Below, piece by piece: positions 46,109 through 47,096 of a stretch of DNA of 60,349 bases (the stretch's first letter is position 1; every line of letters starts with the position of its first letter). This DNA is from Pseudomonas phage PCCM_PaP007. The notes under the pieces are model-generated. The model did not search any database. It was not told where the DNA came from and was given only the letters and a program-made list of their open reading frames with translations. The stretch lies in the sequence record PQ761517.1; one strand, 5' to 3'. The position numbers and the translations under genes are program-made.

Positions 46109-46305
46109 GGGTGGTACCCCTCTGTTGTGTAGGCCTGCATTGTACCCATCCGCTCCAGCCAAAAACAAGGCCTTTTACCCTGGCCGGTGCCCTTCCCTGG
46201 TAACCACGTCCAACCCTCCGCCAAGGCGTCCAAAACAGGCCCCAAAACACTGTTTGGATGTAGTATCTAACGCTCTTCTGCAAACAGCCTAAAAATGGCC
46301 AAAAA

Positions 46306-46362
46306 CTTTTTATTATTTTCCGTTTTATATCCAAAAAGGGGTTTAGCACTTTTTATTATTTT
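46306..46362. repeat. direct repeat CTTTTTATTATTTT x2
   Basis: Copies at 46306 and 46349 in the AT-rich spacer. Confidence 0.6.
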
Positions 46363-46384
46363 GCAAAATTGGGGTGTTTTTTCT

Positions 46385-46446
46385 AACGGGCGTTATTTAC
46401 CAATCCTTACTATGAGGGGGCGTTAAAAAGAACGGGCGTTATTTAC
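46385..46446. repeat. iteron-like direct repeat AACGGGCGTTATTTAC x2 plus partial GGGCGTTA
   Basis: 16-bp copies at 46385 and 46431, with a partial copy at 46417. Confidence 0.65.
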
Positions 46447-46540
46447 TAGATTGGTAAGAAAATGGTAAACGGCAAAATTGGCAGCAAGCCCTAGTAACCA
46501 TGGTGTTTACAATAAAATAAAATAAAGTACCGTAAGGGAG

Positions 46541-46655
46541 TAGGGGGAGGGGGGTATTTTGGGTTTAGCGGTTTTTTTAAAAAAGTGAAAAACCCGTTTT
46601 TACCCCCCCCCTTTTACTACCTTACCATTTACTACCCCCCCCCTATTTTGGGTTT
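46541..46655. repeat. G5/G6 tracts, two C9 tracts and TATTTTGGGTTT x2
   Basis: gtagggggaggggggTATTTTGGGTTT at 46541-46566. C9 at 46603-46611 and 46635-46643. The second C9 is followed by TATTTTGGGTTT. Confidence 0.6.
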
Positions 46656-46714
46656 TGCATTAAATATTATTTTATTGCTTGGACGTACCAAAATAATATT
46701 ATTTTCTGCGTTAG

Positions 46715-46810
46715 TTTGCCCTGGTATTTGCCCTGGTTTGCCTGGGTTGCACGGATGCATGTGCCAGTGTGTTTGGGCTGGTATGTGCTGGCGTGTGCCT
46801 GGTTTTGCTC
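46715..46810. repeat. degenerate tandem ~11-12 bp repeats (TTTGCCCTGGT x2, TTGCCTGGGT, GCTGGTATGTGC, GTGTGCCTGG...)
   Basis: Consecutive CTGGTnTnTGC-like units that resemble an iteron or protein-binding array. Confidence 0.55.
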
Positions 46811-47016
46811 TTCCCAGGGAAACATGCCTTAAAACGGCCTAGCATGGCCCTAGCGCGTTGGCACGGCCAACCCGGTACCTAGGCATACCCTTTGGCATAA
46901 ACGTTGCGCTACGGGGCTATTTGGTGGCTTGCTGGCGGGATATGCCTGGTGCCTACCTGTGGTTATGTTGTCCTATGGGCTTTGCGGGGCGCGGGCGTAT
47001 AAAGGCGGTTAGGGTG

Positions 47017-47045
47017 TTGACGGGCATCCAAGGCCTGGGTACTAT
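47017..47045 (+). promoter_or_regulatory. sigma70-like promoter TTGACG-17-TACTAT (early rightward)
   Basis: First + strand gene starts ~50 nt downstream. Confidence 0.45.
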
Positions 47046-47096
47046 GGCGGCCACTGGGTTGCACGGTGCGGCCTGGGTTAACCACAGAGGTGAATT

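Follow-up and report, generated by a model that had tools for sequence, protein, structure and literature searches.

Gene arms and composition of the intergenic hub

The window analysed here, the 60,349-bp sequence of Pseudomonas phage PCCM_PaP007 (PQ761517.1), is a complete genome of the genus Iggyvirus, and the phage is a Queuovirinae siphophage of Pseudomonas aeruginosa. The join between the end and the start of the sequence is collinear with phage Knedl, showing that the record is a circular permutation opened arbitrarily in the replication module. This report concerns the 988-bp non-coding region at 46109–47096, referred to below as the hub, which lies between a leftward late, packaging and structural arm and a rightward early and replication arm. 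The initial annotation, made from the sequence alone, had described an AT-rich non-coding region of about 1 kb at this strand switch and proposed that it is an origin of replication or a terminase pac/cos recognition region.

The gene map was taken from the Knedl annotation. The leftward arm begins on the minus strand at an ATG at 46108 with a gene of 71 aa, and runs in order through small genes, RusA, lysis genes and the terminase subunits to the head and tail genes. The rightward arm begins on the plus strand at an ATG at 47097 with early gene 1 (47097–47447; 116 aa, function unassigned), whose homologs are confined to Iggyvirus, and continues with small early genes, a helix-turn-helix (HTH) protein, a DUF3987 primase-helicase, replication genes, the preQ0 pathway and the DNA polymerase. 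Both border genes are intact in all eight genomes compared. Within the hub, only one open reading frame (ORF) of at least 40 codons, a 43-codon ORF at 46295–46426 that is discussed below, stays unbroken in all genomes, and 1-bp indels are scattered throughout the hub among relatives. Besides the hub, the Knedl genome contains no annotated gap larger than about 150 bp.

The GC collapse reported between the divergent operons was borne out. GC content is 0.28–0.43 across 46250–46710 versus 0.564 genome-wide, and values below 0.42 over 200 bp occur nowhere else in the genome; the hub minimum of 0.345 (−4.4 standard deviations) marks its only deep AT trough.

Six GenBank relatives and three additional Logan assemblies were used to reconstruct the region. 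Over the 3.5 kb surrounding the hub, identity to PBPA162, Iggy, Knedl, Pa-X, Pa-V, Pa-oumiga and HTN2 is 89–91%, and for the hub alone it is 92–96%. The hub architecture, including a first C tract of exactly nine, is present in seven distinct GenBank genomes and in the three Logan assemblies, which come from different laboratories and platforms; the Logan contigs supply three extra variants and carry no information on genome ends. Conservation of the repeats in related phages, the lack of which the initial annotation had named as a refutation, was found in eight to nine independent Iggyvirus genomes. The boxes, the A/T repeats, the 3' arm of the long palindrome and the AT palindrome described below are near-invariant, and the G-run arm, the patch between the boxes and the CCTGGT array are variable. 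The hub is a real, conserved, non-coding control region.

Promoters, repeats and palindromes within the hub

A sigma-70 promoter directing the rightward early arm is located at 47017–47045 on the plus strand (TTGACG-17-TACTAT), at the edge of the hub where it had been predicted, and passes the promoter scan. Its hexamers are invariant, and its spacer differs in Knedl and L016. A leftward sigma-70 promoter is proposed at 46139–46168 on the minus strand, with a −10 element TACAAT at 46139–46144 and a −35 element TTGTTT at 46163–46168 separated by an 18-nt spacer. This site was recognised by eye and scores under the scan threshold; in Iggy, Knedl and L016 the −10 element is TATACT and the spacer differs, with the −35 element unchanged.

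Two pairs of direct repeats occupy the AT-rich part of the hub, at the distances originally reported. Two copies of ACTTTTTATTATTTT at 46305–46319 and 46348–46362 (plus strand) are 43 bp apart in the most AT-rich stretch and are invariant except for one base in Iggy; a third copy, inverted and 87% identical, is found at 46514. Two exact copies of the box AACGGGCGTTATTTAC, at 46385–46400 and 46431–46446 (plus strand), are 46 bp apart, and each is composed of the inverted half-sites (T)AACG-GG-CGTTA. Between them lies a single half box, GGGGCGTTAAAAAG, at 46417–46430 (plus strand), containing the partial third unit GGGCGTTA at 46418. The two matches to the 16-mer AACGGGCGTTATTTAC compare with 0.05 expected, and none of 100 shuffles reached two. 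TAACG or CGTTA occurs six times in 46260–46720 versus 0.89 expected (P = 3e-4, in a post hoc test). Counted over the whole region, distinct repeated 12-mers number 13; in 500 segment-wise dinucleotide shuffles that kept local dinucleotide content the mean was 0.27 and the maximum 6, and none of the shuffles reached 13.

The G and C tracts were found as described. On the plus strand, a G5 run (46543–46547) and a G6 run (46549–46554) are followed by two C9 tracts at 46603–46611 and 46635–46643, which are the only homopolymers longer than seven in the 60-kb genome. The first C tract is exactly nine long in every genome compared and the second is nine or ten long among relatives, so sequencing slippage, which the initial annotation had asked to be checked, is excluded and the tracts are not artefacts. 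A shared 12-mer, TATTTTGGGTTT, had been reported after each G/C block; it does follow the G block and the second C9 tract, but not the first C9 tract. Behind the second C9 tract, TATTTTGGGTTT is present in most genomes. Behind the G block it is carried only by PCCM_PaP007 and HTN2, apparently as a templated patch of sequence by which the palindrome is weakened. In the other genomes TAAAAT or TAAAAG follows the G block, lengthening the hairpin (46541–46566 compared with 46635–46655).

The proposed long-range pairing of the G and C tracts holds in the form of an imperfect 94-bp palindrome at 46532–46625 with 38 pairs, whose centre is T7A6 and whose arms are the G runs at 46536–46554 and the first C9 tract. 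As a single strand, the 94-nt hairpin folds better than shuffles (RNA z −3.07, DNA z −2.15), and it is retained in eight variants, among which 93.8% of the cells at hairpin pairs are paired versus 55–69% when the partners are slid. No compensatory changes occur in the eight variants, and covariation thus says nothing for or against the structure. The Rfam scan of the region gave no match at gathering score; the best scored 27 bits versus 130, and all were long-hairpin look-alikes of plant microRNA precursors. By sequence criterion (four runs of at least three G or C with short loops), GGGAGTAGGGGGAGGGGGGTATTTTGGG at 46536 could form a G-quadruplex or i-motif; the four G runs are retained in all variants, with one 8-nt loop in Pa-V. 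A second, perfect palindrome at 46663–46700 is AT-rich and consists of 11-nt arms (AATATTATTTT and AAAATAATATT) around a 16-nt loop. Its arms are invariant except for one base in PBPA162, and its loop differs at three positions.

An array of 11–12-bp CTGGT-type units had also been noted. The array is present at 46714–46805 on the plus strand as a loose series of 9–12-bp TTTGCCCTGGTA-like T(T/G)TGCC(C)TGGT(A) units and is variable among relatives. CCTGG occurs seven times on the plus strand within 46700–47100, and CCAGG once. A 10-bp tandem duplication of (A)AACAGGCCC at about 46233–46242 is polymorphic: PCCM_PaP007, Iggy, HTN2 and L016 have one copy, and Knedl, Pa-V, Pa-X and PBPA162 have two.

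Genome ends in iggy and in Nonagvirus

The text of the published description of phage iggy reports 1091-bp direct terminal repeats, obtained by Nanopore read mapping (PMC10484667). In the sister genus Nonagvirus, phage 9g has a terminase large subunit about 62% identical to that of PCCM_PaP007. A read-start pile-up placed a physical end of 9g within the early/late intergenic region that is homologous to the hub, at a distance of 473 bp from the first early gene; sequencing reads cross this end, and the authors inferred a terminal repeat (PMC4276943).

A second Nonagvirus supplied independent evidence. The HdSG1 record contains an exact 3363-bp direct repeat at both ends (MK373795.1, 1–3363 and 60233–63595; L037 1–3363 and L038 2734–6096), which is marked by none of the features listed in the record. 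The inner boundary of this repeat falls exactly on the nucleotide homologous to the 9g end that had been mapped in 2014, with CGCGGGGCGGCTC on one side and TTAGATCTC on the other. The distance from this boundary to the first late-arm gene is 132 bp; the repeat spans the early promoter and the first seven early genes. Because these two data sets, 9g read starts and the HdSG1 repeat, agree, we conclude that in Nonagvirus one genome end is fixed within the hub and the repeat reaches into the early arm. A CGTTA-N3-TAACG palindrome is found 17 bp from this end.

The Nonagvirus phages belong to the same subfamily and share with PCCM_PaP007 the two-arm layout and a single large non-coding hub at the strand switch. 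The order of elements is also common to PCCM_PaP007, 9g and HdSG1: end, CGTTA/TAACG boxes, palindrome, CCWGGTA array and early promoter. Three GTTACCTGGTATTT units in 9g resemble the hub array and have the same orientation and relative position. There are also differences. There is no alignable hub DNA between the genera; the Nonagvirus repeat is 3363 bp and covers seven early genes, as against 1091 bp and one gene for Iggyvirus; the half-sites are arranged as CGTTA-N3-TAACG rather than TAACG-GG-CGTTA; and the array units are spaced by 26–27 bp rather than 9–12 bp. Nonagvirus hubs lack the C9/G-run palindrome, an AT trough of this depth and size, and the GA depletion described below (ratio 0.80). 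The Seuratvirus SLUR26 has a non-coding gap of 548 bp, situated about 600 bp from its strand switch, that contains a GT-rich array, in which GCTGTGCG is repeated, and a palindrome (L023 6990–7130) reminiscent of the array at 46745–46805; the terminal region of Seuratvirus may be displaced from the promoter region.

A candidate packaging site between the two boxes

Taken together, these data indicate that the hub is probably the genome-end and packaging-initiation region of a direct-terminal-repeat siphophage, fused to the divergent promoter region of both arms. The proposed packaging cut, which would form the near boundary of the repeat, is placed between 46416 and 46417 (CTATGAG followed by GGGGCGTTAAAAAG). 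The Iggy GenBank record is opened exactly at this point, and the fit between the two is suggestive. The two perfect boxes are separated by a 30-bp spacer, and the position is no more than 1 bp from its midpoint.

With the length taken from the text of the iggy report (PMC10484667) and the direction modelled on HdSG1 and 9g, the direct terminal repeat would extend over 1091 bp from 46417 to 47507. Its far boundary would fall in the 100-bp spacer (47448–47547) that separates early gene 1 from early gene 2, and no gene would be cut; conversely, a rightward 1091-bp repeat that ends in this spacer must start at 46358–46457, which is the box region. Besides half of the AT core, a repeat with these boundaries would include the palindrome, both C9 tracts and the CCTGGT array, together with the rightward promoter and early gene 1. 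A second promoter-like site is located at the proposed far boundary, at 47484–47512 on the plus strand (TTGGAT-17-TATAAT); it was recognised by eye, is unflagged by the scan and is conserved in all genomes.

The genome encodes both terminase subunits, and its assembly closes with a single repeat copy, the joined ends being collinear with Knedl. The small subunit (40427–40966, minus strand), which matches Terminase_2 and phrog_5334, is the presumed reader of the packaging site, and the large subunit (38826–40427, minus strand), which is 99.6% identical to that of Iggy and about 62–64% identical to those of Nonagvirus and Seuratvirus, is the presumed nuclease. The small subunit shows 100% identity to those of Knedl and PBPA162, in genomes that differ by about 6–8% overall; this identity across divergent genomes fits a fixed protein-site pair. 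Its identity to the Pa-V protein is 97%. The small subunit gene is among the most conserved genes, and the neighbouring early genes are mosaic.

The following sequence of events can be envisaged. In replicated concatemers the hub would be situated between the leftward late arm and the rightward early arm. Terminase would recognise the AT-rich core, the TAACG-GG-CGTTA box pair being the candidate sites and the small subunit the putative box reader, and would cut between the boxes at or near 46416/46417. About 1.1 kb rightward of the cut would be duplicated, and this segment would occupy both ends of the virion DNA. Once the DNA is injected, host RNA polymerase would start at the 47017 promoter on the left-end copy, and the late arm would be read from the proposed promoter near 46140, which lies just beyond the repeat. 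The palindrome, the second C9 tract, the AT palindrome and the array are candidates for roles in repeat duplication, terminase assembly or replication initiation.

The original pac/cos proposal is retained for packaging, in the form of a terminal-repeat boundary indirectly supported by the iggy repeats and by the Nonagvirus end in the homologous hub, but not for cos: the published end type is terminal repeats rather than cohesive ends, and reads cross the 9g end. The likeness to lambda cos is that paired, protein-sized repeats flank the proposed cut in a unique non-coding site. The differences are that terminal repeats are the published end type for iggy, that a scan of the hub found no IHF consensus site, and that the lambda boxes are on one side of the cut whereas the hub boxes are direct repeats arranged symmetrically around it.

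A T7-type junction is similar in having fixed ends, a non-coding repeat at both ends that is rich in short repeated units, and early host-polymerase promoters just inside the left end. A palindrome near the T7 concatemer junction has been implicated in duplication of the terminal repeat. PCCM_PaP007 differs in being a siphophage with an unrelated terminase sequence context and in having a proposed repeat that is about seven times longer and contains a gene.

Several observations weigh against assigning the end to this site. The text of the iggy report gives no coordinates for the terminal repeats (PMC10484667). The accession number and software versions of the Iggy record suggest that its deposition probably preceded the Nanopore run, and its opening point therefore may not be a measured end. 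The coincidence of the cut with the box midpoint was noticed post hoc, and the cut and ends of PCCM_PaP007 itself were deduced rather than read-mapped. Iggyvirus and Nonagvirus hubs share no alignable sequence, as noted above, and alignment of the terminase small subunit with 9g fails over its N-terminal 39 residues. Headful packaging has been described for more distantly related large subunits; prediction of packaging type from the terminase was dropped, the tree being non-predictive in this clade and the literature contradictory. Finally, conservation of the AT core is no better than the genome average (92.9% identity to Knedl versus a genome median of 94%), and the view that the core is exceptionally conserved was withdrawn, only its immediate flanks being hypervariable.

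Diversity along the locus forms a low block at 46300–47530 (0.02–0.06, rising to 0.12 at 46700–46799) between hypervariable flanks (0.15–0.4). The right edge of the block, near 47530, is just beyond the proposed repeat boundary and the promoter-like site at 47484–47512.

Alternative functions of the hub

An origin of replication is the most substantial rival to a packaging function, and we regard it as possible but doubtful. The AT trough, unique in the genome, would serve as the unwinding element, the boxes or the A/T repeats would bind an initiator such as the DUF3987 primase-helicase (809 aa), and the palindrome would aid loading. With spacings of 43 and 46 bp, the direct repeats face the same side of the helix; polymerase, primase-helicase and ligase are all phage-encoded; and the cumulative GC skew is lowest around 45–50 kb, although the skew is confounded with the strand switch. 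As in the iteron origins of lambda ori, P4 ori and plasmid oriV, an AT-rich stretch adjoins repeated boxes. However, those origins have four or more tandem iterons, and at least three tandem repeats of about 17–22 bp in helical phase would be expected, whereas each repeat in the hub has only two exact copies, plus one half box. The hub contains no DnaA-box cluster, the single one-mismatch match at 47078 being a 9-mer that is abundant genome-wide; the term iterons, used in the initial annotation, therefore does not apply in its strict sense. In addition, the IHF scan was negative, no initiator gene adjoins the hub, the primase-helicase being about 8 kb away, and a search of a plasmid collection gave no match and no similarity to plasmid origins. 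An origin in the AT core could coexist with a packaging function.

It is unlikely that the hub is purely a transcriptional switch, with the boxes, the AT palindrome and the CCTGGT array acting as operators that time early versus late expression, as in temperate-phage immunity, and the genome ends located elsewhere. Divergent promoters, the leftward one proposed, do bracket the hub, the early arm includes a gene for a small HTH protein, perfect palindromes whose loops vary resemble dimer-binding sites, and the temperate-phage-like layout was remarked on by the 9g authors (PMC4276943). The promoters are about 850 bp apart, however, and most of the motifs are hundreds of base pairs from either; the Nonagvirus physical end is inside the homologous hub; and iggy has terminal repeats, for which no other non-coding region fits the boundaries without cutting genes. 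There is very little likelihood that the hub encodes a product, either the 43-codon ORF at 46295–46426 or a structured RNA formed by the 94-nt hairpin. The ORF is intact in all eight genomes and was called by Pharokka in Knedl, but its intactness can be ascribed to the near-invariance of the DNA; it has no ribosome-binding site and no PHROG match (Pfam was not scanned), and its AT-rich codon make-up is foreign to the genome. The RNA z score favours a structured RNA, but no promoter is predicted ahead of the hairpin, Rfam matches are sub-threshold, and compensatory changes are lacking. An assembly or sequencing artefact at a low-complexity locus is effectively refuted by the recurrence of the same architecture across laboratories and platforms. 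Several GenBank records do break at the hub: the ends of the Pa-V record overlap by 48 bp inside the C9 tract, and the Pa-X record ends in a T11 run. The Knedl record starts at a called coding sequence, and the HTN2 origin was set by comparison with relatives. The opening points of these four records in or near the hub have trivial reasons.

Searches beyond the genus and other motifs

A flanking-protein search of IMG/VR for more distant hub relatives returned nothing, and an invariant hub 22-mer was absent from IMG/VR and metagenomes apart from one isolated 24-nt match. That exact match, GAAAAACCCGTTTTTACCCCCCCC (46587–46610), is an intergenic spot on an unrelated contig of a metagenome-assembled genome (CAYGMR010000547.1; L036 1451–1474), the rest of which is unmatched. 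The search with the 16-mer box gave single chance matches only. Stenotrophomonas phage BUCT627, whose terminase large subunit is among the closest outside the genus, was dropped as it does not have the two-arm layout.

The 9-mer at 47078, TTAACCACA, is present in 11 copies genome-wide versus about 0.5 expected, on both strands (7991, 12624, 15135, 22466, 26977, 37946, 47078, 57340, 59367, 59492 and 60104). Eight copies are antisense to genes and two are in 5' leaders just before the ribosome-binding site; the copies share no wider context. A sigma-54-like element of −24/−12 geometry, TGGCATAAACGTTGC (TGGCAT-N5-TTGC, 46893–46907), downstream of the CCTGGT array is probably a chance occurrence, TGGC-N7-TTGC being found ten times genome-wide.

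Depletion of GA dinucleotides in the hub

In phage iggy, GA on either strand is the published target of DpdA, and about 97% of the sites are modified to dPreQ0. The hub of PCCM_PaP007 contains 34 GA/TC dinucleotides versus 122 expected (ratio 0.28, a 3.6-fold under-representation; z −10.1), making GA/TC its most depleted dinucleotide class; the next lowest is CG at 0.67. When all 988-bp segments of the genome are compared, the median GA/TC ratio is 0.78 and the 5th percentile 0.59, and the hub is the single minimum at 0.26. The hub ratio is 0.25–0.29 in all eight Iggyvirus genomes, and depletion peaks at 46417–47016, where ratios are 0.18–0.22. Early gene 1 (47097–47447) has GA/TC at 0.42 of expectation. 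Within genes the GA ratio is 0.99 in codon phase 1–2 and 0.46 and 0.63 in the freer phases; because the freer phases are also low, part of the depletion is a genome-wide tendency, and the hub is below every phase. The depletion is not seen in the Nonagvirus (0.80) or Seuratvirus hubs.

Selection for unmodified cis-acting DNA, mutational decay of GA, and a by-product of repeat units that lack GA are three candidate causes. We suggest tentatively, as a minority possibility, that the hub is a selected modification-free zone in which sites for terminase, host RNA polymerase and perhaps replication proteins are kept clear of the bulky major-groove dPreQ0. Such a zone would also keep the G runs able to form Hoogsteen structures.

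Implications for Iggyvirus and the Queuovirinae

The hub is a control region of an ordinary phage type, and its unexpected trait is the GA/TC minimum. If this depletion is selected, Iggyvirus would represent a rare case of a hypermodifying phage shielding its own cis-acting DNA, which bears on how modification affects DNA-binding proteins. Iggyvirus phages are candidates for therapy and for attack on biofilms, Knedl and PaStL2 using Psl as their receptor, and the location of the genome end and packaging signal is needed for engineering, correct assembly and consistent annotation; the public records are currently opened at five different points in or just beside the hub. The candidate cut between the boxes constitutes a nucleotide-level prediction of the packaging site for the whole genus, and the Queuovirinae appear to have in common a fixed end within the early/late hub.

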